Shown: one piece after another, positions 1,252 through 63,460 of the stretch
Layout of the letters: each line of letters begins with the position of its first letter
How positions within the stretch are numbered: position 1 is the first letter of the stretch
Notes under the pieces: generated by a model
The model's input: the letters and a program-made list of their open reading frames with translations, nothing else
Told to the model about the DNA's origin: nothing
Databases searched by the model: none
Program-made: the position numbers and the translations under genes
Assembly: GCA_903899705.1 (NCBI GenBank)
Contig: CAIUKQ010000105.1
Coordinates: 1 to 63,460 of the forward strand
DNA: 63,460 nucleotides
Source: an uncultured beta proteobacterium
GTDB lineage: Bacteria; Pseudomonadota; Gammaproteobacteria; Burkholderiales; SG8-39
Direction of reading: 5' to 3'

Positions 1252-1479
1252 GCAAAGGCTCCATCCTGAAATTAAAATCGTCGATTGCGGCTAAGCAGCA
1301 CAAACGGTGCTGTCTACACGGCTTCCCGCACCCTGAGCACTTTATATAGCATTGATTAATAACAATATATTATCTAAATAACGAGGCGATCAGGGGGCGT
1401 TGCAAAAATTCTTGCATTGCAGCAAAAAAATCATTACTCTTGTCCCTGTCTCCTCCACCCCGAATTTTGGTGGATTTAA

Positions 1480-1506
1480 CGCAGCCCCCAAAGGGCTGCG
1501 TTTTTC
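1480..1506 (+). terminator. Orphan + strand intrinsic terminator in the osmC-like/hydantoinase spacer
   Basis: CGCAGCCC(1480-1487)-ccaaa-GGGCTGCG(1493-1500) followed by TTTTT. No credible + strand CDS lies upstream of it. Confidence 0.55.
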
Positions 1507-1687
1507 TTTGTGGAATCCATTGACACTGCATTCTATGCGAGGCGCACCTCGTCTTGACGGTGCTCCAAATATGGCGATAATCCCGAGGCCCCAATGACGG
1601 CTGCCGTGCAATCGCCGCAGATCACTATCTACGCGCATCTGCCAGAGCCGACGTTGGTTTTTTCCCCTCAATCCAGGAGTACCCGTT

Positions 1688-14072: not shown

Positions 14073-14669
14073 TCAGCGCGTGCCGGACGGTGCCGGACCC
14101 GGCTTGGAGACCGTTGACGAACAGGGGGACTTCGCTGACGGCGACTGCTGCTGATTGCGGGGCATGATGATTGCCCTGACCCTGTCATCCTTGTTGGCCG
14201 CAGATCCTTTGGCAGATTGCACGGAGAACTGCTCGGTCTTGGAGTCGTAGGATATGTAATTGCCGACTACGTCGTCGCCGCAGTCGCGGCGCAGCCGGGC
14301 CCTGTTGAAGAACTCGACGCGGTCCGCGCGACCGTCGTATTCGATTCTTTCCGCTTCACCTTCAATATTTTCGTCAAATCCCTCGCGCTTCTGGCGGAAT
14401 GTCGCGAGGTTGCCCATGGCGATTCCAGACTGAAATCCCTGGCTGTCCTGCTTGACCGTCAGGCGATCTGCATGAATGACCATGGTGCCCTGTGTCAGGA
14501 CCACTCGGCCTTCAAAGACCGATGTCTTCTTTGCATCATCGGCATTCATGCGATCCGATTCAAGGTTGACCGGTTTGTCGCGATCGGCTAGTTCAGCACG
14601 CGCCGGGGAATATGCAAGAAGCGCCACTGCCATCGCGGTCAACGCCCAAAAGTCATTTTTTCTGGACAT
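14073..14669 (-). CDS. lptA: LPS transport periplasmic protein LptA
   Basis: 198 aa with a signal peptide (..LLAYSPARA/E) and an OstA-like beta-jellyroll region. Synteny supports the call. Confidence 0.88.
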   Translation of the reverse strand: MSRKNDFWALTAMAVALLAYSPARAELADRDKPVNLESDRMNADDAKKTSVFEGRVVLTQGTMVIHADRLTVKQDSQGFQSGIAMGNLATFRQKREGFDENIEGEAERIEYDGRADRVEFFNRARLRRDCGDDVVGNYISYDSKTEQFSVQSAKGSAANKDDRVRAIIMPRNQQQSPSAKSPCSSTVSKPGPAPSGTR

Positions 14670-15225
14670 GAAAATTTCCTTTTACCGCGGACAGCAGTGT
14701 CAACTTCCCGGTTTGCTTTTCATATTCCATGCCGGTCCCGGTGAGCGTGGAGGCGCCATTGACGATCAACACGTCGCGGTCCGTACGCGCGGTTTCGCGG
14801 TCCATGAACACGAGCATGTACTGCGTCCGGATTGTGAGCAGGTCCTTTCCATTCGAAGGGCGGCGAACGAGCTCGACGTTGTCATTGAACCGGGCTTCCT
14901 GGACTTCCTGATTGATGGTTCCGTGATCTGCAACAACGGTCAGGTCGGCATTTGCATCGGTCCGATGAAACTTCGGCGCAGTCAGTTCCATGGAATCGTT
15001 GTCCGGGTAGTGCACCATGCGTGTGGCCGAAACGTGATATTGCGCGTCACCGCGTTCATCCATCCGGGCAATGGTGACGTTTTCGGCGATGCCGTCAGGC
15101 TCGTGGCGATTCTTCCCCGGATCGCCCGCCGGTGGTGCCTCCATCGTGAACCTCAGCCAGAGCGTCATCGCGCCGATCAAAAACATGAGGGTCACCGGCA
15201 GAAGGTGATTGAGCCGGGATTTCAT
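14653..15225 (-). CDS. lptC: LPS export system protein LptC
   Basis: ORF trimmed to MKSRLNHLLPVTLMFLIGAM (a single N-terminal TM segment). ATGA overlap with the kdsC stop. Synteny supports the call. Confidence 0.8.
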   Translation of the reverse strand: MKSRLNHLLPVTLMFLIGAMTLWLRFTMEAPPAGDPGKNRHEPDGIAENVTIARMDERGDAQYHVSATRMVHYPDNDSMELTAPKFHRTDANADLTVVADHGTINQEVQEARFNDNVELVRRPSNGKDLLTIRTQYMLVFMDRETARTDRDVLIVNGASTLTGTGMEYEKQTGKLTLLSAVKGNFHVQKK

Positions 15226-15755
15226 TTCAGATATTGCATCATAGAAGCGTCGTATTTTCCCTGGGCGCGAAGTATGAAATCGCATACTTCGCGCACCGCC
15301 CCGCGACCGCCCGGCGCCTCCGGCACAAAATGCACGCGGGACCTGACGGACTCCGGGGCTCCCGAAACGCTTGCTGCGAATCCGCAACGGATCAACACCG
15401 GAAGGTCAAGGACATCGTCCCCCATGTATCCGGCCTGTGCGGGGGAAATGCCGCGGCTGTTGAGCATCTTCAGGAATTCAACCGATTTGTCGGCCGTGCC
15501 CTGGCATACGAGGTCAATGCCCAGCTCCGCGGCCCGCATTGCAACGATTTTCGATCGACGTGAGCTTAGCAGCCCGACTTCCACGCCCGAGTCAGCGAGC
15601 ATTTTCAGGCCATGGCCATCCAGCGCATTGAAGGCCTTCATGACTTCACCGCTTTCGCCAAGGTACAACGTGCCGTCTGTAAGAATGCCGTCAACGTCAA
15701 ACAGCATCAGGCATATGTGCCGTGCCAGTTCCATGGCTTTGACCCGCGTGTCCAT
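15222..15755 (-). CDS. kdsC: 3-deoxy-D-manno-octulosonate 8-phosphate phosphatase
   Basis: 177 aa with HAD motif FDVDGILTDG and GDDVLDLPV. Confidence 0.9.
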   Translation of the reverse strand: MDTRVKAMELARHICLMLFDVDGILTDGTLYLGESGEVMKAFNALDGHGLKMLADSGVEVGLLSSRRSKIVAMRAAELGIDLVCQGTADKSVEFLKMLNSRGISPAQAGYMGDDVLDLPVLIRCGFAASVSGAPESVRSRVHFVPEAPGGRGAVREVCDFILRAQGKYDASMMQYLK

Positions 15756-15778
15756 TCAATGCCCCGAATATCTGGCCA

Positions 15779-16909
15779 TCAGATGGCTTTCGCGCGAAAC
15801 AGGTCGTGCATGTTGAGCGCCCCCACCAGCTTTCCCCGCTGATCCACGACGAGAAGCTGGTTGACCTTGTGGTCTTCCATAAGTTTGACCGCTTCCGCGG
15901 CAAGCTGGCTGGAACCGATGGTCCGCGGATTGGGGGTCATAACCGATTCGATATTTATGGACCGAATATCGCCGGTGCTCTCAAGTGTCCTGCGCAAATC
16001 GCCATCGGTGAAAATTCCCCGAACCCGGTGTTTGCCATCGACAATCGCCGTCATGCCAATGCGTTTTTGGGTAATCTCGATCAGGGCCTCCTGGAGTTTG
16101 GCCTGAAGCGTTACCGAGGGCACCGCCGCGCCGGTGCGCATGACATCGGAAACGCGGGTCAGGAGGCGCCGCCCCAGAGTGCCGCCCGGATGAGAGCGCG
16201 CAAAATCCTCGGCGCTGAATCCCCGCGCGTCTAGCAGGGATACCGCCAGGGCATCTCCCATGGCGAGCGCGGCAGTCGTGCTTGCGGTTGGCGCAAGGTT
16301 GAGCGGACAGGCCTCCTGTTCAACGCGGGCATCCAGGTGGGCATCGGCCTGCACTGCAAGGGTGGATTTCGCGTTTCCCGTGATGGCAATCAGTTTGGCA
16401 CCTTGACGCTTGATCAGGGGAATGATGTTCAGCAATTCCGAGGTTTCCCCGGAGTAGGACAACGCTATCAGAAGGTCGTTGGGTTGCACGAGCCCGAGGT
16501 CTCCATGACTCGCTTCGGCAGGATGAACGAAATACGCGGGTGTTCCGGTGCTTGACATCGTGGATGCGATTTTTCGCGCGATGTGCCCGGACTTGCCGAT
16601 GCCGCTGACAATGACTCGGCCGGTACAGCCAAGGATCATGTCCAGCGAACGCACGAAGTTCTGATCCAGACGCGAGGCAAGTGCCGAGATGGCCTTGGAT
16701 TCGATCGTTAGCACGTTGCGTGCAAGTTCCAAGGCTGATGATCCGGCAGTGGCCACAGCCTGTCGTCTGCCGCGGGGAGTGGCAGACGGTTTTTTCCTGG
16801 CGGCCGGTTTTGCGGCTGGAAGCAACTCCGAACGGCCGGGGCGCGTCTTGTGCAATTTGCCGGCTCGCGAAGCTGCCATAATCATGACGAAAGTATAGCA
16901 GAGCCCCAA
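15779..16909 (-). CDS. kdsD: Arabinose-5-phosphate isomerase (SIS + tandem CBS domains)
   Basis: GIGKSGHIARK, the SIS domain and two CBS repeats. About 45 extra basic N-terminal residues relative to the family core, so the start is uncertain. Confidence 0.9.
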   Translation of the reverse strand: MGLCYTFVMIMAASRAGKLHKTRPGRSELLPAAKPAARKKPSATPRGRRQAVATAGSSALELARNVLTIESKAISALASRLDQNFVRSLDMILGCTGRVIVSGIGKSGHIARKIASTMSSTGTPAYFVHPAEASHGDLGLVQPNDLLIALSYSGETSELLNIIPLIKRQGAKLIAITGNAKSTLAVQADAHLDARVEQEACPLNLAPTASTTAALAMGDALAVSLLDARGFSAEDFARSHPGGTLGRRLLTRVSDVMRTGAAVPSVTLQAKLQEALIEITQKRIGMTAIVDGKHRVRGIFTDGDLRRTLESTGDIRSINIESVMTPNPRTIGSSQLAAEAVKLMEDHKVNQLLVVDQRGKLVGALNMHDLFRAKAI

Positions 16910-20708: not shown

Positions 20709-21431
20709 TCACTTCCCCTTTTTTATCCTCGACTCGATTTCTTTCAGTCGCAGCTCCATTGTTCGCAATTCTCCAGGACTTTTGATCAGGCCTTTTTCAA
20801 TGTAGCCGCCGATCATGATTCGCGCGGTTTCCAATTCATTCATGTCTTCGAGAATGAAGATTTCCATCTGCTTTGCCCAAAGCGGTACGTCCTCTCCGGT
20901 GGCATTCTGCTGAATCGCTGCGGCATATTTTCTGGCCAGCGGCAAGTCCTTCAATCCGTGTTTGGCCACAGCGGCGGCGTGCGCGAGCCATGGCCAGCGG
21001 CGGCCGGGGTCCCTGAAAAACTCCTGATAGACAAACTCCAGCATTTGCCGTTTTTTTGCCTCGTTAGGAACATCTGCATACAGCCTGCTTGCAGCCATAA
21101 GTGGGTACTGACCGTTGGGGTCTAGACGAAGGATTTGGGTCAGCCAGGCCTGCAACTTTCCATAGTCAAGCGCCTGGAACGGTGTTCTGTCGCCGGATTG
21201 GTAGTCAAACGCCTGCAGATAAAGCATCAGCAGTTTGGCCGTTGGTATGGGGTCCCCGAAACTGGCGACCGCCAAGGCGTTTGATCCTGGTGGGGCAGGC
21301 AGATCCACGGCCTTGGGAACCAGCAGCGGATTGGTGGCTCGAACCCAGATCTGCACGGCAAAGGCCAGACCAAAGATGATCGCAATGCCCTTCGGAACTA
21401 CGTGAAAGGGACGCTCCAGGGATCCGGCCAA
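20709..21431 (-). CDS. Hypothetical membrane-anchored all-helical protein (function unknown)
   Basis: No motif recognised. One N-terminal TM segment (GIAIIFGLAFAVQIWV), then a helical, TPR-like region. No in-frame ATG lies near the 5' end. TTG at 21431 (GAGG 5 nt upstream) is preferred over TTG at 21491, which overlaps the upstream gene. Confidence 0.55.
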   Translation of the reverse strand: MAGSLERPFHVVPKGIAIIFGLAFAVQIWVRATNPLLVPKAVDLPAPPGSNALAVASFGDPIPTAKLLMLYLQAFDYQSGDRTPFQALDYGKLQAWLTQILRLDPNGQYPLMAASRLYADVPNEAKKRQMLEFVYQEFFRDPGRRWPWLAHAAAVAKHGLKDLPLARKYAAAIQQNATGEDVPLWAKQMEIFILEDMNELETARIMIGGYIEKGLIKSPGELRTMELRLKEIESRIKKGK

Positions 21432-21447
21432 ATCCGCCTCGCTCTCG

Positions 21448-22218
21448 CTAAAAGTTCTTCCGGTACAAGTCGACCATGGTCGCGGCGCCAATCAGCAACA
21501 GGTAAACAACGGTCTGTGTTGCCCATTGGGATATCTCTCCCATCGTCGGTCCCTGGTCCGTGAGCCACGACGTCAATGTCATGCGATCCAGGTTCGGCAT
21601 CATGAGTGCAATTGCGTCGACAATCCATCGAAACACATCGTCGGTCCACGAGGTTTCTATGCTGATGGGCGTGGCGGCAATGATCTGCATCGCACTGATG
21701 GATCGTGCGAGCAGGTAGAAACCGGCGGTTGCCGCGAATGCAGCAATGACATGGGTGAGTGATATCGCGCAAAAAACGCTGATTGCGGCGACTATCAGAA
21801 GTTCGCATGCTAGAGACCCCCCCCAGATCGCCACCTGTGAAATCGGAGAATAAATTGCGAGGGGCACGGAAAATCCGGCGGCGAGCGCCAACGCCACCGC
21901 TGCACAGCCGGTGATTTTTCCAAGGTAGTACTGGGAGCGGGCCGCGGGTTGAGACAGGAAAAACTCGACAATCTTGTCGTTGGCTTCGCGCGCAAGGCTG
22001 GTAATGCAAAACGCGGAGACCAGGAATACGCCTGTAGCGCGCAACATCACCGCCATGATCGCGGTCTGGATCTGCGCCAATTCGATCATCGCAACCTGGC
22101 TCAGGAATTGGGCGACGCCAAACGCTACGCCCATCGCGACGATCGCAACCCAGGTCATGCGGCTCCTGAGAGCCTCCAGAAAAGTGATTCTGGCGATGGT
22201 TAGGCTGAATACCGGCAC
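21448..22218 (-). CDS. ABC-2 family (NosY-like) transporter permease
   Basis: Six predicted TM segments. The N-terminus ..SLTIARITFLEALRSR.. is typical of ABC-2/NosY permeases. GTG at 22218 (GAGG 6 nt upstream) is preferred over GTG at 22254. Confidence 0.7.
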   Translation of the reverse strand: MPVFSLTIARITFLEALRSRMTWVAIVAMGVAFGVAQFLSQVAMIELAQIQTAIMAVMLRATGVFLVSAFCITSLAREANDKIVEFFLSQPAARSQYYLGKITGCAAVALALAAGFSVPLAIYSPISQVAIWGGSLACELLIVAAISVFCAISLTHVIAAFAATAGFYLLARSISAMQIIAATPISIETSWTDDVFRWIVDAIALMMPNLDRMTLTSWLTDQGPTMGEISQWATQTVVYLLLIGAATMVDLYRKNF

Positions 22219-22464
22219 AGACAACCTCGATTCCTTGTCCTTTGAGAACCGCACCAGTCAGGATGACCGCCCCAAAACCTTGCGCCGGCGACACGCTGGC
22301 ATTCGTTATCGGATTGCGCTTCTGTTGGCATAATACGTGGGTCAGGATTTTTGTGAATTGCGTTGAGCAGTTGAAGCGGGCCACACTTCGCATTCCGGCA
22401 TTCAATTCAAACCCATTCAATCCGTTCGACTGGCCCGGACAGAAACGGTTAAGGCGCGGATGAA

Positions 22465-24432: not shown

Positions 24433-25800
24433 ATGAGTCATTTTCGATTGAGATTGCGGGGAAAACAGCGCGGAGCGGCAATATTGCTGTTTGCGATTGC
24501 AATCCTGATCATGTTCGTGACCATTGGAGAGGGGCTCCGGTCGATGACCTCCGCCACAGATTTCGCGAATTCGATGACCACTTCGGCGCGAATGGACAGG
24601 GTGCGTGAGGCGATAGCAAAATTCATCGCGACCAATAATCGCCTGCCTTGCCCCGCCATTCCGCAGTCCGATACGATTGTCGGCGCGGGGGTGGAGGCGC
24701 CCACACCCGGAACGTGCACCGGCGCTCTCTCGGGGACGGCCACAAAAAGAGGTTTGGTGCCCTGGGTTGCCCTTGGACTGCCCGTCGAAGTCTCCTATGA
24801 CGCCTATGGCCGCCACTTCACGTTTCTCGTGGCTACAGCCGCAACCGGATTGACTCAGCAAACCGTTGGCGGCATCACCGGGGCCATCACCCTTCATTCC
24901 GCTGCGCCCGTTGTTTTGGGTTTGGCAGGGGTCGGGTCGCAGAATCAAACCAACGCCTGTTCCACGGTGGCCGCCGTAACATCCTGCAACCGGCGAGGCA
25001 TCGCCGCATTGGTATCGCATGGTGAAAATGGGCTTGGGGGTTATCTTCCCAATGGAACGCAATTGACGTTTGTTGCCGGCCGCCAGAATACCAACGATCC
25101 AGAGTACGAAAATGCGGATTCCGACGATGCTCTGGTGACGATGAATGCAGTGACCTCAACCGATGACACAGTATCAATGTATGACGACAAGGTGGTCGTA
25201 TGGTCGGCGGCTGACATCATTCAGCGCGTTCCGATAACCGAATCGGTTGCTTCGGCGGATCGGGTTACGAACATGAAAATTCAGGTCATCAAATCCGCGT
25301 TGATTGGTTTTGCGATGGGGCACACGACGGTATCACCGGGTTCAACCTGCGTGAGCAGCGGCACGCCGGCCGGCGTGTTCTGCAGAAGGCTGCCGGTTCC
25401 TGACTATTCTCCTCTGGATGGAAACGAGGATTCGACAACAACCGGCACCGGGTTGTATCCGACGGCAGGCAACCACGCCCGCGTTCCCTATATTTCGGTC
25501 GGACTCCTCCTTAATGACATCAAGGATGGCTGGGGCAATTATTTTGACTATGCAGTTTCGGAGCGTCGCTTTGTGCGCGCTGGAAATGCGTCTGCTGCGA
25601 GTCATCGGGGCTTCAGTGGTACAACGCCGGCCAATCCGGCTTCGGCTGTCATAGCAGCCTGTTCCACCTACCATTGCTTTACACTCACCTCGAGTGGCCC
25701 CGATGGCACAATGGGCACGAGCGACGATATATCCATCGCGGTCAAGCTGGATGAGATTCGCACACTGTTCAACGCTGCCAGCGTTACTTATCCGCCGTGA
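24433..25800 (+). CDS. Large pseudopilin-like protein A; non-canonical N-terminus, two GspG-like modules
   Basis: 455 aa. N-terminus KQRGAAILLFAIAILIMF has no Phe+1 or Glu+5. It carries RLPCPA, GLVPWVALG, DAYGRHFTF...VSHGENGLGGY and a second set LPVPD, VPY, DGWGNYFDY...SSGPDGTMGTSDD. Confidence 0.7.
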   Translation: MSHFRLRLRGKQRGAAILLFAIAILIMFVTIGEGLRSMTSATDFANSMTTSARMDRVREAIAKFIATNNRLPCPAIPQSDTIVGAGVEAPTPGTCTGALSGTATKRGLVPWVALGLPVEVSYDAYGRHFTFLVATAATGLTQQTVGGITGAITLHSAAPVVLGLAGVGSQNQTNACSTVAAVTSCNRRGIAALVSHGENGLGGYLPNGTQLTFVAGRQNTNDPEYENADSDDALVTMNAVTSTDDTVSMYDDKVVVWSAADIIQRVPITESVASADRVTNMKIQVIKSALIGFAMGHTTVSPGSTCVSSGTPAGVFCRRLPVPDYSPLDGNEDSTTTGTGLYPTAGNHARVPYISVGLLLNDIKDGWGNYFDYAVSERRFVRAGNASAASHRGFSGTTPANPASAVIAACSTYHCFTLTSSGPDGTMGTSDDISIAVKLDEIRTLFNAASVTYPP

Positions 25801-27785: not shown

Positions 27786-28390
27786 GATTTCACCGGCTTT
27801 ACGACAACCAGATCCACTTCGCAGATAGAGCTAAGGCGTGGCGACGCCGATGACGCCTGCACGCCGCTACGCTCCAGTCGGTCAATCGTGCAGTGGCGGA
27901 TTGAGACCTGAGATAGCGCTGCAGCTTCAAGGTCGGAAAGGAATTTGAGCAAATCTTCCTCGTGAAGCAACTGCATTTCAAGCCTCATCCGGCTGGCCGC
28001 CAGATCGAGGGCGCCGGCGGGGGTCATCCCCGGATAGGCGAGCGGCTTTTGCGAATCGATGGTGTAGCGAATCTCGAATAGTTTCCTCGCGGCTTTTATC
28101 TTTGCAATCGAATCAATGAGATCAAGCCTGTTCTCCTGGTCAACCATGCCCCGCGATGCCATGCGCGCATACCAGACCATGTTTTCCTTGATTTCACGTT
28201 CCTCCTCGGAAACCTGGGCAACCTTCTTTTGCGTCTCTTCACTGGATTTGGCTGCCGCGCCGCGGGCAACCTTGGCGTCGGCGAGCCATGATTCGGACAC
28301 GGCGACAAAACCCGCCCCCAAGCCGATCAATAGCACCGCAAGCGCGACGGGCAGGCGCATTTTTTTGAAATCGGCGCGGTCAATCCTCAC
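27782..28390 (-). CDS. PilO/MshJ-like pilus assembly protein
   Basis: 202 aa: a single TM segment (LPVALAVLLIGLGAGF), a coiled-coil, then a small C-terminal domain. GTG start overlaps the upstream stop; an alternative ATG is at 28360. Confidence 0.6.
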   Translation of the reverse strand: MRIDRADFKKMRLPVALAVLLIGLGAGFVAVSESWLADAKVARGAAAKSSEETQKKVAQVSEEEREIKENMVWYARMASRGMVDQENRLDLIDSIAKIKAARKLFEIRYTIDSQKPLAYPGMTPAGALDLAASRMRLEMQLLHEEDLLKFLSDLEAAALSQVSIRHCTIDRLERSGVQASSASPRLSSICEVDLVVVKPVKS

Positions 28391-29961
28391 GATTCGAGAC
28401 GCCTGCTCAGAACAATGGTAAAGCGCGGTATTTCGGTTTCCCTGGCGGCGCCGATGTCCCCGGAAAGGCTCTTTTCCGCGGTCAGATCGAAAGGCAATTG
28501 CACGCTGTCAACGACTATCCCCGGCAGACCGCGCAAGGCATCTGCGAACTTGTTGACCAATTGTGTGATGTTCTTGTAGTCCCCGCTCTGGGCCGCATTG
28601 ATGCGCCCGGAAATCTGCACAACTTCGTACATCGGGGCGCCTTCGGATTTTTCTCCGGATGCCACCGGCGCCGGAGCGGCGGGTTTGACCTCTCCCGCCT
28701 TGGAACCTGCGCGCGGCGCGTCCGACCTGAGCTGCCATTCAATGTGTTCCAGCTCAATCTGTGGACTGGAAACGAGTGTGCGGCTGAGGTCCACAAACAT
28801 CTTCTCCGGGGAGGTGCTCTGCTTTTGCAGGGTGACATAGTTCTTTACCAGCGCCTTGAGGTTATCCGTCGTTGTCGGCGTCTTTGGAAACTGCGCCTGC
28901 AACCGGGCATATTGTTCATTCAATTGCCGTTCCCGCTGCTGGTCGCCGTCGGCCTGGGTTCTCACGCTGTTGAATTCCAGGAGCCGGACGGAAGTCCAGA
29001 GCGCGCACAGCAGGAATATCGCGCCGCCCGTTGCAAATGCGGCAAGCCGTGCACGCCACAGATTGAAAAAGCGGCGGTGCTCGTCAACCGCGAATTGCAA
29101 CGAAGGCGGGGAGGAAGCAAGGGAATGGGCAAATATGTTTTCGGTCAATGCGTCCGCCGGTGCTGATTTCAATCCAATCCGCTTGCTCGCGTCGCTTACT
29201 GTTAAAAGGTTGTAATGCAACTGCGCGGTATTGACGCAGGCGACCTGAAACTGGGTAAGCATGTCATCCGGACAAAGAACGATTACTTCCAGCGCGCCGC
29301 CGTCGCGCGCAAGCATGCGCATGTTGGTGAGGTATTGCTGCAGACGCGAGGTTTCCGAGGCGAGCATATTGGCCCGAAGCACCGGGTCATCGCCCTCTAT
29401 CTGTCCCAGCCGGGAGAACCGGATTTGGCCCTTGTCGACGAAGGTCTGGCGAATGCCGGCCTGCTGCCGACTGACAAGGAGAAACCGCTGCTGGGAAAAA
29501 CCGAGGCGCTTTGCCAGCGCCGGGGCAAGCAAAGGAGGGGAGTAGACCCCGGCCATTCGCGCTTCCAGCCTGGACAGGGCCAACAGCCATGGCTGCAATT
29601 GCTGGGTGTTCGTGAAGGATGTGAACAGGATGCTTTCTTCGCGCCTCGGTCCGGTCTCATAGCCCAGGGAAAGGGTCATCGCGAGTGAAAGGTCGCGGTA
29701 ACGTTGCGCCAGTTTTCGGTGCAAAAGCGTGCGGCGGTCACCGCCACGAACGTAGGGAATCAATTCCTGGTGAAAATCCTCGTCGACGATATCCACCAGC
29801 AGAAAATAAAGGGCCTGTGGCGACTGGGAGACGTAACTGGTGAATTCGGGCGGTGCCTCTTCGCCTTGCGGGAAAACTGCGTCTCGTACGAGCGTGCCGG
29901 CCGTCCAGGTGAACGCTACGACCTGGTTTGTCGTGAAATACAGGATTCTCTTGGCGGGCAT
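28387..29961 (-). CDS. PilM-PilN fusion-type (MshI-like) pilus assembly protein
   Basis: 524 aa: a cytoplasmic ~300-aa actin-like-sized domain, one TM segment (LAAFATGGAIFLLCALW), then a periplasmic coiled-coil plus alpha/beta domain. Position matches the alignment subcomplex. Confidence 0.6.
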   Translation of the reverse strand: MPAKRILYFTTNQVVAFTWTAGTLVRDAVFPQGEEAPPEFTSYVSQSPQALYFLLVDIVDEDFHQELIPYVRGGDRRTLLHRKLAQRYRDLSLAMTLSLGYETGPRREESILFTSFTNTQQLQPWLLALSRLEARMAGVYSPPLLAPALAKRLGFSQQRFLLVSRQQAGIRQTFVDKGQIRFSRLGQIEGDDPVLRANMLASETSRLQQYLTNMRMLARDGGALEVIVLCPDDMLTQFQVACVNTAQLHYNLLTVSDASKRIGLKSAPADALTENIFAHSLASSPPSLQFAVDEHRRFFNLWRARLAAFATGGAIFLLCALWTSVRLLEFNSVRTQADGDQQRERQLNEQYARLQAQFPKTPTTTDNLKALVKNYVTLQKQSTSPEKMFVDLSRTLVSSPQIELEHIEWQLRSDAPRAGSKAGEVKPAAPAPVASGEKSEGAPMYEVVQISGRINAAQSGDYKNITQLVNKFADALRGLPGIVVDSVQLPFDLTAEKSLSGDIGAARETEIPRFTIVLSRRLES

Positions 29962-61642: not shown

Positions 61643-61867
61643 CTGTTGCCTTGGAAATTCGTAATCAATTGAAAATAAAAGAAAATAAGCTTGTTCTGAC
61701 CGGTAAATCCAGCGTCGCTGGGCGATTTGGGTCAGAGTCGGTTATTCCAACGCATGGATTGGCCCAAACGTGAATTATTGACGCCAAATGCCGTAGAAGT
61801 ACGTGCAGGTTCATCGTTTCGATACTATTCTCTGCGCTACGCAATTTAATCCCCGGGAGGGACAGTC

Positions 61868-62092
61868 ATGCGTGAATTGAAAGCCGAAGAGTACTTGCAG
61901 GTCAGTGGTGGAGGCCGGAGAAAAAACCATTGCGGCGGCGGTCATGGCAGCAACCATGGCAGCAGCCACGGCAGCAGTCACGGTTCTGGACAGGATGGTA
62001 ATGGAGGCGGTGGCGGTACCGATCCGGCCGCAGTCTGCGCAGCCAGTGGCGGGACATGGGATGCTGGTAGCGGTGTCTGCATATTGCCCTAA
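61868..62092 (+). CDS. Double-glycine-leader, Gly/His/Ser-rich bacteriocin (class II microcin-like) precursor
   Basis: 74 aa with GGGAGG RBS 7 nt upstream. Leader MRELKAEEYLQVSGG fits the GG-leader consensus (M-15, L-12, E-8, Y-7, V-4, GG). The 59-aa core has 19 Gly, 8 Ser, 5 His, 3 Cys and four HGSx tetrads. Confidence 0.7.
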   Translation: MRELKAEEYLQVSGGGRRKNHCGGGHGSNHGSSHGSSHGSGQDGNGGGGGTDPAAVCAASGGTWDAGSGVCILP

Positions 62093-62135
62093 CATCAGCG
62101 GTTATTGTGTCGGTTAATATCTGACACGCCGCGAT

Positions 62136-62164
62136 AAAAAAGCCGCGAGTTCGCGGCTTTTTTT
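62136..62164 (+). terminator. Rho-independent terminator after the peptide gene
   Basis: A6-AGCCGCG(62141-47)-agtt-CGCGGCT(62152-58)-T7. Confidence 0.8.
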
Positions 62165-62211
62165 ATCTCTTTCTGAAATCACGAAGATTTAAAGGCAACG
62201 GGATCCACCAC

Positions 62212-63375
62212 ATGGGTCGCATTTCGACCAATAGGGGTAGGCAATTTGTCGCCGGGATCGGAACCTTGGCGCTTTTGCCCTGGCCTGCAGCGGTTGCCCA
62301 GGTTGAATTGTCGGACGGAATTCGACTGCGCAACGATACATCCCTCGCCTTTGCGGCAACAGTTCGAGGATCAGTTACACAAGGATCCGGAACGGCAGGA
62401 TTGGTCCGGCTAGGTGAAATGGCCCTTTCGGCACAACCGGCAATTCTCGTCGCAGAAGCACGCGCTCGCGCCGATATGGAAAAGCTCGAGCAAGCCCGCG
62501 GGGGGCTGAGGTCGACTGTCGGCGGGTCGCTGGGTTACGGACGCGAGTTGGCCAACAGCGGGTTGGCGTTCCCGTCTTCGAGTTTCACAGGGGGAGTGCT
62601 TCTGACCATTCCCTTGTTCCGGCCGCAAGCGGATGCGAGCATTGGCCAGGCGCGATTTCAGGAAACGTCCTCACGTTCTGCTGTAGCCGAAGCAGAGCAG
62701 GACGCGTTGTTTCGGGTAATTGATGCGTATCTCAACGCTTCCCAAGCCGAGGAGGAAAAAAGCCTCTATGACCAGGAGAGGGAGGTCCTTCTGGACCAGC
62801 GGCGCCTGAACCAGCGTCGAATGGACGGCGGGGTCGGCACACGTGTCGAGGTCATGGAGACTTCGGCCCGTGCTGAATCCATCCTTGCCCAGATGGAGGT
62901 CGTTCGTAACACCTATCGTTCACAACTCGCCGAGCTGAGCAGGTTATCCCGGTCTCCTGTGGCGGGGGTCAGCCGCATCCAAGACAGCCTTCCCTCCTTG
63001 GTGGTGCCTGCTCGTGTCGAAGATACGGTTGCCATCGCCAGATTGAAAAGCAGAGCCTTGGCCAGATTGGATGCCGCTTTGTCGGCGGCCAGAGCTGGCG
63101 TGGAAGTGCAACGTGCCGCACTGCAACCAACCGTCAATCTGGTTGGAAATATTGACCGAACACGCCTGTATTCCAGTGGTGCCGCAAGTACGATTCCATC
63201 CACGGGCGTTGGCGTGCAGTTCGCCATCCCGTTTTATACCGGGGGCGTCGGGGAATCCCGGATCAGGGAAACCCAAGCCCTGGCGGAGGGCACCCAGGCG
63301 CAGTATGAAGACGCCGCGAATATCCTCGAGACGGAATTGCGAAAGGTGCGTATTCCACGTCATCGTGACCGGTGA
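62212..63375 (+). CDS. TolC-family outer-membrane efflux protein, probably 3'-truncated
   Basis: Signal peptide (..LLPWPAAVA/QV) and two OEP-type repeats. The second repeat stops at ..ANILETELRKV and runs into unrelated RIPRHRDR*. About 70-80 C-terminal residues seem to be missing by comparison with its own first repeat. Confidence 0.7.
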   Translation: MGRISTNRGRQFVAGIGTLALLPWPAAVAQVELSDGIRLRNDTSLAFAATVRGSVTQGSGTAGLVRLGEMALSAQPAILVAEARARADMEKLEQARGGLRSTVGGSLGYGRELANSGLAFPSSSFTGGVLLTIPLFRPQADASIGQARFQETSSRSAVAEAEQDALFRVIDAYLNASQAEEEKSLYDQEREVLLDQRRLNQRRMDGGVGTRVEVMETSARAESILAQMEVVRNTYRSQLAELSRLSRSPVAGVSRIQDSLPSLVVPARVEDTVAIARLKSRALARLDAALSAARAGVEVQRAALQPTVNLVGNIDRTRLYSSGAASTIPSTGVGVQFAIPFYTGGVGESRIRETQALAEGTQAQYEDAANILETELRKVRIPRHRDR

Positions 63376-63439
63376 TTCCGCCGCATCGTGACCGAGGTTC
63401 CAGGGGATCGTGACCGCAATTCCGCGGCCATCGTGACCG
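63353..63439 (+). repeat. Four tandem 22-23 bp direct repeats, TTCCnnnnn(n)ATCGTGACCG
   Basis: Units start at 63353 (TTCCACGTCATCGTGACCG), 63376 (TTCCGCCGCATCGTGACCG), 63398 (TTCCAGGGGATCGTGACCG) and 63420 (TTCCGCGGCCATCGTGACCG). Confidence 0.9.
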
Positions 63440-63460
63440 ATGGAGTGGTTGTTGTATGGA

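Follow-up and report, generated by a model that had tools for sequence, protein, structure and literature searches.

Class II microcins are reported to be widespread, abundant and very diverse in sequence (PMC12219008), and for most of those that have been characterised the site of action is at or within the inner membrane (PMC10233263). The systems that make them are defined by five parts, namely a double-glycine pre-peptide, a peptidase-containing ATP-binding cassette transporter (PCAT), a membrane fusion protein (MFP), a TolC-family partner and an immunity gene (PMC10233263). Among other double-glycine peptides, the bacteroidetocins are reported to be toxins without an immunity gene (PMC10233263, PMC6671954), and RaxX of Xanthomonas oryzae has a function other than that of a bacteriocin (PMC6637879; 10.1101/442517). 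Here we examine a 74-codon open reading frame (ORF) near the end of contig CAIUKQ010000105.1, a 63,460-nt stretch (hereafter, the window) from an uncultured freshwater member of the Burkholderiales. The product carries a double-glycine leader, and in related loci the gene is linked to an exporter cassette; four of the five parts of a class II microcin system are present (the double-glycine pre-peptide, PCAT, MFP and TolC-family partner). We read the system as a new variant of microcin-like peptide and type I secretion system from uncultured Burkholderiales, with a core unlike those of the described class II microcins. Features described below lie on the forward (+) strand unless stated otherwise. 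Homologous loci and contigs are labelled by L-numbers (L001, L002, L009 and so on), and P0007 is the family member at L019.

The gene occupies positions 61868-62092, starts with ATG, and has exactly the coordinates and sequence first reported. It is preceded by a ribosome-binding site, GGGAGGG, at 61855-61861, 6 nt before the ATG; this is the strong site of the original prediction, which had given the spacing as 7 nt, the value obtained when counting from GGGAGG. The site is identical in the window, L015, and L016, and GGAG-type sites are found in L009, L019, L021, and L022. Because the DNA is repetitive (GGC/AGC/CAC), several frames are open in the window, among them an antisense ORF of 94 aa (61811-62095) and a +2-frame ORF of 70 aa (61905-62117), and conservation is therefore needed to choose the real frame. 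Across six homologous loci, the +1 frame was the only one without an internal stop: the antisense ORF was disrupted in three of the six (L002, L016, and L019), while one or two stops, differing in position between loci, interrupted the +2 frame in each of them. Loss of the frame in related genomes had been named at the outset as a result that would tell against the prediction, and the +1 frame is open in all six. Nine same-species copies differed at two single-nucleotide polymorphisms, both synonymous in +1 and amino-acid-changing in the other frames, one of which creates a stop in the antisense ORF. The identical peptide was found on 12 contigs from many samples, and a second allele (L027 and L028, from the window's own species) has one HGSS tetrad fewer, an in-frame loss of 12 nt that leaves three rather than four H-G-S-x tetrads; repeat number thus varies among members of the window's population. 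It could be argued that this is a chance open frame in GC-rich repeats, or that an overlapping frame is the true gene, as the repeats leave both the antisense and the +2 ORFs open in the window. However, the +1 frame alone is open at six of six loci, the polymorphisms are silent in +1 only, the leader is almost invariant, the ribosome-binding site is conserved, and linkage to the PCAT cassette is constant, so that we consider a chance or misassigned frame extremely improbable. The 74-aa ORF is almost certainly a real gene, and it is under purifying selection.

The first 15 codons (61868-61912) encode the double-glycine leader, MRELKAEEYLQVSGG; the peptide is predicted to be cut after Gly15. 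Eleven of its 15 positions are invariant in an alignment of seven sequences, and the pattern R2-x-L4-x9-G14-G15 fits Motif 1, M..Rx[IL]x9G[GAS], the signal motif used for mining class II microcins (Parker et al. 2025, PMC12219008). Eight of the 15 residues are identical, in the same register, to the CvaC leader of the Escherichia coli ColV plasmid NZ_CP028383.1. Among relatives, residue 16 is variable (G, C, or N), and G14-G15 never vary.

Codons 16-50 (61913-62017) make up a hydrophilic, low-complexity part of the core, consisting of an RRK patch, Cys22, four H-G-S-x tetrads (61943-61990), and a run of five glycines (62003-62017); Tandem Repeats Finder reported a 12-nt unit repeated 3.2 times at 61946-61983. 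The remaining codons, 51-74 plus the stop (62018-62092), encode a C-terminal mini-domain, TDPAAVCAASGGTWDAGSGVCILP, that contains Cys57 and Cys71. The predicted core has 59 residues and a mass of 5.41 kDa, with 19 Gly, 8 Ser, 5 His, and 3 Cys, and both this composition and the position of the four tetrads agree with the counts given in the original prediction. The predicted mass lies within the range of about 5-10 kDa of class IIa, whose peptides are unmodified apart from disulfides (PMC10233263); no modifying enzyme was seen in the closest relatives. In an AlphaFold2 model built on a six-sequence alignment, the leader contains a helix at residues 6-12, and the last 24 residues, with predicted local distance difference test (pLDDT) values of 83-89, form a helix (53-59) and a hairpin (63-65/70-72). 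A Cys57-Cys71 disulfide probably closes this modelled C-terminal knob.

Downstream of the peptide gene, and following a terminator as had been claimed, lies the cassette's own TolC-family outer-membrane gene, of which the window holds the 5' 379 codons (62212-63349; Pfam OEP, 2.3e-29; TIGR01844, 5.4e-37). In L009-L014, L015, L016, L019, and L021 the gene order is peptide, OEP/TolC (452-497 aa), HlyD/AprE-type MFP (385-416 aa), and PCAT (716-722 aa), and the same four-gene linkage appears in one further database record without DNA. The order is permuted in L033 (OEP, MFP, PCAT, peptide), where the genes are still linked. This linkage covers every locus with enough flanking sequence and, as the flanks outside the cassette differ, the four genes constitute a unit. 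In L001, an intact same-species contig, the gene for the identical peptide is followed by those for an OEP of 485 aa and the MFP; the contig then runs 34 residues into the PCAT, which begins MSANFFSLWGRRDPPVILQTEEAECGLACLAMCA, far enough to include the catalytic Cys motif.

The PCATs contain the domains Peptidase_C39, ABC_membrane, and ABC_tran. Their C39 domain keeps Gln20, Cys26, His99, and Asp115 (LQTEEAECGLACLAM ... HWDLNHFVVM ... DP) and is therefore predicted to be an active peptidase, not a degenerate domain of the HlyB type. When compared with the cvaC-cvaB-cvaA locus retrieved from an E. coli plasmid, the PCAT aligned with CvaB over 682 residues at 40% identity (E 7e-173), and the cassette MFP with CvaA at 23% identity (E 2e-35). 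Between lineages, identity is 80-89% for the PCAT and 71-92% for the MFP, vs 69-85% for SspB, and by this measure the two exporter proteins are more conserved than SspB. The original prediction had assigned the leader to a C39-peptidase ABC exporter acting with an MFP and TolC, a proposal that is upheld by the motif fit and by the linked PCAT, MFP, and OEP genes; it had also held that a genome with no PCAT or MFP would speak against it, and both genes lie downstream in relatives and in L001. From these comparisons, cutting of the peptide after Gly15 and export by the PCAT, MFP, and TolC-family channel appear well supported, and we would expect them with considerable confidence.

The absence of PCAT and MFP genes from the window is explained by a probable insertion sequence (IS) of the IS21 family, which lies within the TolC gene and in which the assembly breaks off. 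The window is nearly identical to L001 up to about position 63349 (the OEP product is 98% identical) and unrelated to it beyond, where the foreign DNA begins TGCGTATTCC. The left end of the element, at 63350-63460, has four exact ATCGTGACCG repeats, at 63362, 63385, 63407, and 63430 (spacing 22-23 nt), that are found nowhere else in the window. On plasmids of Polaromonas and Variovorax, including plasmid 1 of Polaromonas sp. JS666, the DNA some 130 nt upstream of istA/istB is 76-83% identical to this end, and, with the contig ending inside the element, the istA/istB of the window's own copy would fall past the window end. These matches point to an IS21-family element in the TolC gene of the window strain. 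The same truncated 387-aa TolC product is found in another assembly, while L001 and L002 are intact and without the element; therefore, the insertion is polymorphic in the population. Thus, the statement made at the outset that no PCAT, MFP, or immunity gene is visible is true of the window, but the PCAT and MFP are not lacking from the locus, as L001 and the relatives demonstrate.

The peptide family is small, with about a dozen relatives. A word-indexed search returned seven proteins, and an exhaustive HMMER search of 1.84 billion representatives of 50%-identity clusters returned eight at E<=1e-3, three of them among the seven. Among the matches listed from a profile scan of genome contigs, L020 (a Gemmobacter metagenome-assembled genome) was rejected as an out-of-frame low-complexity match inside a permease gene. 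The leader of the family has the general form MRELK(A/P)EE(Y/F)xQVSGG; with its variants written out it reads MR(E/D/K/T/V)L(K/N)x(E/K)E(Y/F/L/M)x(Q/L)VSGG. All members combine it with a Lys/Arg patch, H-G-S-x (or H-N-S-x) tetrads in series, and a stretch of 5-10 Gly. A C-terminal module containing two Cys is present in most of them, as is a third Cys whose position varies. The tail TDPAAxCxAxGGxW...C(I/A)xP is common to the window, L015, and L016; other lineages have a C-x15-C tail with a PDG(T/S)Y motif, and some a short Pro-rich tail. The L033 member has no C-terminal tail at all and, because one member is without the C-terminal Cys domain, the part common to the whole family is the low-complexity His/Gly/Ser/Lys segment.

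Of the described systems, microcin V of E. coli (class IIa; CvaC/Cvi/CvaA/CvaB/TolC) shares with this one (i) the 15-residue leader layout, (ii) an HlyD-type MFP and a TolC-family channel, (iii) the PCAT motifs QTE-AECGLACLAM and HWD-HFVV, which are the same as in CvaB, and (iv) a small Gly-rich core whose two-Cys loop stops a few residues short of the C-terminus. It differs in that the locus described here has no cvi-like immunity gene; that its TolC gene comes first in the cassette, whereas E. coli uses the chromosomal tolC (PMC10233263); that it lies in the core chromosome of an uncultured freshwater host; and that its core is dissimilar in sequence, hydrophilic, and predicted to be disordered, with an (H-G-S-x)n array. 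The bacteroidetocins are likewise small peptides with a 15-residue double-glycine signal, a PCAT nearby, and reportedly no dedicated immunity gene (PMC10233263, PMC12219008, PMC6671954); they are, however, related to Gram-positive class IIa bacteriocins, a relation that the present core sequence does not show, and they come from another phylum, the Bacteroidetes, while the cassette examined here is a complete OEP-MFP-PCAT set.

Similarly, RaxX resembles our peptide in its roughly 60-residue precursor, whose leader is of the double-glycine type, in its export by the PCAT RaxB, the MFP RaxA, and an outer-membrane partner, and in having no immunity gene and a non-bacteriocin function (PMC6637879; 10.1101/442517). 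RaxX nonetheless has no sequence similarity to it and needs the sulfotransferase RaxST, which is encoded in its cluster; no sulfotransferase domain was found among the called genes of any cassette examined (L009, L015, L016, L033, and others). The class IIb microcins MccE492, H47, and M share the double-glycine leader, PCAT/MFP export, and a Gly/Ser-rich sequence, and a GT1-family gene follows the exporter in two related lineages (not that of the window), as MceC/MchA do. The C-terminus here is hydrophobic (...SGVCILP), in contrast to the Ser/Gly-rich siderophore-attachment motif of class IIb (PMC10233263), there are no esterase or MceIJ-like genes, and the glycosyltransferase is not present in the closest relatives of the window.

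We postulate the following course of events. The peptide gene has its own conserved upstream palindromes and strong ribosome-binding site, and is followed by a hairpin and a terminator, an arrangement in which peptide mRNA would probably outnumber exporter mRNA. The C39 cysteine-peptidase domain of the PCAT would recognise the leader and cut after Gly15, and the 59-residue core, if the mechanism of CvaAB-TolC applies, would leave the cell by way of the PCAT, the HlyD-type adaptor, and the TolC-family channel of the cassette. The mature product of 5.4 kDa would be a disordered hydrophilic chain (Lys/Arg patch, four H-G-S-x tetrads, and Gly5) ending in a folded knob, with Cys22 as an extra cysteine, and would most likely act on other bacteria as an antibacterial peptide. 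In the window strain, where the TolC gene is broken, export may be impaired, or may proceed via another TolC or via promoter activity out of the IS.

A microcin-like reading of this kind draws its support from the four defining parts out of five, from the exporter homologous to CvaAB, from the abundance and diversity of such peptides (PMC12219008), and from C-terminal modules that vary between lineages as they do in polymorphic toxins; for double-glycine toxins that lack an immunity gene, the bacteroidetocins are a precedent (PMC6671954). Taken as a whole, the reading as the precursor of a class II microcin-like secreted peptide, antibacterial role included, has in our estimation an even chance of being correct, and the extracellular antibacterial function, considered separately, stands at about even or slightly below.

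Several observations weigh against this reading. No conserved or membrane-like small ORF (at least 25-30 aa) that could be an immunity gene was found beside the peptide or the exporter in the window, L009, L015, L016, L019, L021, or L033. An immunity gene may lie elsewhere in the genome; hydrophobic, Ala/Val-rich ORFs in the +2 frame were tried as an overlapping immunity gene and rejected, since they contain one or two non-conserved stops per locus and their composition is a by-product of the repeat. The core is strongly hydrophilic (GRAVY, the grand average of hydropathy, -0.67; isoelectric point about 7.1), and most of residues 20-49 have pLDDT values below 50 and are predicted to be disordered; its composition is probably not that of a membrane-inserting pore former. 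The peptide matched zero families of Pfam-A and NCBIfam at E<=1, and thus no bacteriocin or double-glycine model, and a tblastn search of 72,556 plasmids gave no match and no bacteriocin. A full-text literature search with the repeat and leader motifs likewise found no paper containing them, and the core is as unfamiliar as the original prediction had held. In addition, the PCAT and MFP lie outside the window itself, and a low-complexity His/Gly/Ser/Lys segment would be an unusual common part for a family of receptor-specific toxins. Taken together, the lack of an immunity gene in these contexts and a core that is hydrophilic and disordered weaken the reading as a canonical microcin.

One alternative is that the product is an exported metal-binding peptide. 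Its His array, with a His at every fourth residue of a flexible Gly/Ser chain, and its free Cys would capture extracellular Zn, Ni, Cu, or Fe, and could so serve to acquire, buffer, or detoxify the metal. Nearly all family members have 5-8 His at i/i+4 spacing, while the C-terminal module is variable or missing and the odd third Cys occurs at varying positions. The seven contexts without an immunity gene are in keeping with this alternative, as a non-toxic metal-binding peptide would not need one; the cassette, moreover, sits in the core chromosome beside sspB in several lineages, with an exporter more conserved than SspB. Directly upstream of P0007, positions 20-262 of L019 encode the C-terminal part of a HupE/UreJ_2 protein, of the Ni/Co transporter family, and this is the sole metal-related neighbour seen. 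A single HupE neighbour may, however, be coincidence: there is no consistently linked TonB-dependent receptor, uptake ABC system, or metal regulator, and the neighbours differ from one context to the next (sspB, toxin-antitoxin genes, RsmJ, an uvrA-like gene, a decarboxylase). Furthermore, the upstream palindromes resemble no recognised Fur, Zur, or NikR consensus, when judged by eye, and no PCAT-exported ribosomal peptide is known to us as a metallophore. We consider this metal-binding role unlikely, though worth keeping in view. In a wider form of the idea, the family would be a new kind of product of type I secretion: a disordered, His-array peptide that binds metal outside the cell and works as a ribosomal metallophore, as a metal buffer, or as an antimicrobial with metal- or pH-dependent activity, and that is kept together with a TolC-MFP-PCAT cassette of its own in uncultured freshwater Burkholderiales. 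Extracellular metal binding would explain both the missing immunity gene and the conservation of Lys/Arg-(HGSx)n-Gly(n) over the folded tail, and to this form we would give roughly one chance in five.

The peptide might instead have some other non-toxic extracellular role, as a signal or mimic or as a surface-, matrix-, or mineral-associated peptide, modified in some lineages. A precedent exists in RaxX, a double-glycine peptide exported by a PCAT, an MFP, and an outer-membrane protein that has a non-bacteriocin role (PMC6637879, bioRxiv 10.1101/442517), and some of the accessory genes described below could fit such a role: a GT1-family gene pair follows the PCAT in two lineages, and a fusion of an M50 protease to HlyD, together with a giant DUF4347 gene, is found in three lineages linked to sspB. 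Low-complexity double-glycine peptides served by related exporters, the (GGGHGKGGGYGY)n type of L024 and a Ser/Lys/His-rich type on pMNOD02, point the same way. Yet no sensor kinase or receptor is consistently linked, a two-component pair occurring near L033 only, and the loci do not all share a sulfotransferase or any other modifying enzyme. Since the accessory genes change from lineage to lineage, they may be unrelated neighbours. On balance we hold such a role to be improbable, somewhat more so than metal binding, and the probability left over by the three readings is assigned to no particular role.

What is at stake differs between these readings. If the peptide is antibacterial, weapons of the class II microcin type would extend to uncultured freshwater Burkholderiales, and a hydrophilic, disordered core without an immunity gene would point to action or self-protection unlike that of membrane-targeting microcins. 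If it is metal-binding or otherwise non-toxic, the cassette would be a rare PCAT-type exporter in Proteobacteria that does not serve bacterial warfare. In either case, a compact set of four genes that can be transplanted, with a clear predicted cleavage site, makes the question of function directly testable.

Several candidate regulatory and RNA elements surround the gene. A near-perfect 7-1-7 palindrome, CGTGAATTATTGACG, is located at 61769-61783, about 85-100 nt upstream of the ATG, and is a candidate operator or promoter element; it is conserved in the sspB-linked relatives L015 and L016 and has no other close match in the window. A related motif, GTGACAT(T/G)ATG, lies upstream of the gene in L009, L021, and L022. 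The second palindrome, CGTA-N4-TACG (CGTAGAAGTACG), at 61792-61803, is a candidate regulatory site that is present upstream in the window, L015, L016, L021, and L022; the window contains it once, against 0.23 occurrences expected. The palindromes were considered as sigma-54, CRP/FNR, ARG-box, Fur, or Zur sites and showed no fit by eye, matrices not having been applied.

Directly 3' of the stop codon, a stem-loop at 62098-62132 is kept in five lineages with G-U and compensatory changes. The fold of 62090-62175 has an energy of -36.7 kcal/mol (z = -6.3 relative to shuffled sequence), and the stem-loop may play a role in transcript stability or processing. It is followed at 62133-62167 by an intrinsic terminator, AAAAAGCCGCG-N4-CGCGGCTTTTTTT, whose stem is almost invariant in five lineages and which the terminator scan placed at 62136-62163; the gene accordingly has the terminator of its own that had been claimed for it. 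Precursor is usually made in excess over its pump by placing a terminator between their genes, and partial read-through here would leave more peptide mRNA than exporter mRNA.

The accessory genes of related loci fall into distinct sets. In L009 (15307-17813) and L021 (8451-9910), two paralogous glycosyltransferase-like genes of the GT1 family (GT-B fold) lie directly 3' of the PCAT gene. The pair share 34% identity, and matches to CalG1, SnogD, and rhamnosyltransferases were obtained for the second, a hint that peptides with the PDGTYGC tail may be glycosylated in these lineages. In L015 (6925-9054), L016 (6715-8844), and L032 (3794-5899), which are the nearest relatives of the window and are linked to sspB, the PCAT gene is followed instead by one for a 701-709-aa fusion of an M50-type intramembrane metalloprotease to HlyD, with a daptide_HExxH match (1.7e-41) that is below the model cut-off. 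After the fusion comes a giant DUF4347/cadherin-like, adhesin-like gene of more than 1750-2440 aa (L015, 9306-end; L032, 6142-end). The giant DUF4347 protein was considered as a double-glycine substrate of the PCAT and rejected, its N-terminus being without such a leader.

A leader-pattern scan and the neighbours of plasmid PCAT genes revealed further low-complexity double-glycine peptides. L024 (1016-1357) and L026 encode a leader, MRDLKNEELEQVSGG, followed by a (GGGHGKGGGYGY)n core of variable copy number, and plasmid pMNOD02 of Methylobacterium nodulans (L031, 3417-3572) encodes a leader, MRELTIDELTHVYGA, followed by a Ser/Lys/His-rich core. Both peptides adjoin FemAB-like and MFP/PCAT genes. 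Low-complexity double-glycine peptides near such exporters may represent a wider class not yet described, as the existence of these two other types, served by related exporters, also suggests.

The window itself is ordinary core chromosome, with oxoprolinase, hprK, rpoN, an MSHA-type pilus cluster, mla, murA, his, tat, petABC, and sspAB. Its cytochrome b and SspA fall into protein clusters whose members carry the name 'Burkholderiales bacterium' and come from metagenome-assembled genomes. The cassette adjoins sspB in at least three lineages and occupies other locations in other lineages. Upstream of the peptide gene is a 225-nt spacer of 45.8% GC, compared with 57.5% for the window, that falls in the lowest 1.6% of 225-nt windows. 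The original prediction was right that this spacer is AT-rich and lies downstream of sspB, but its suggestion of an island edge is ruled out by the genome-like GC content of the cassette (0.60 vs 0.575 for the window) and by the sspB synteny. The AT-rich spacer is just the promoter region.

Elsewhere in the window, four ORFs encoding 340-524 aa (14476-15816, 21398-22420, 24433-25800, and 28387-29961) have no Pfam match at E<=1e-5; two of the four are located in or beside the MSHA-type pilus/secretin cluster (about 25.8-39.2 kb), which contains a sigma-54 activator. Finally, Rfam places a Betaproteobacteria_toxic_sRNA (RF02278) at 1447-1509 (+), with a score of 51.8 bits vs a gathering score of 50.

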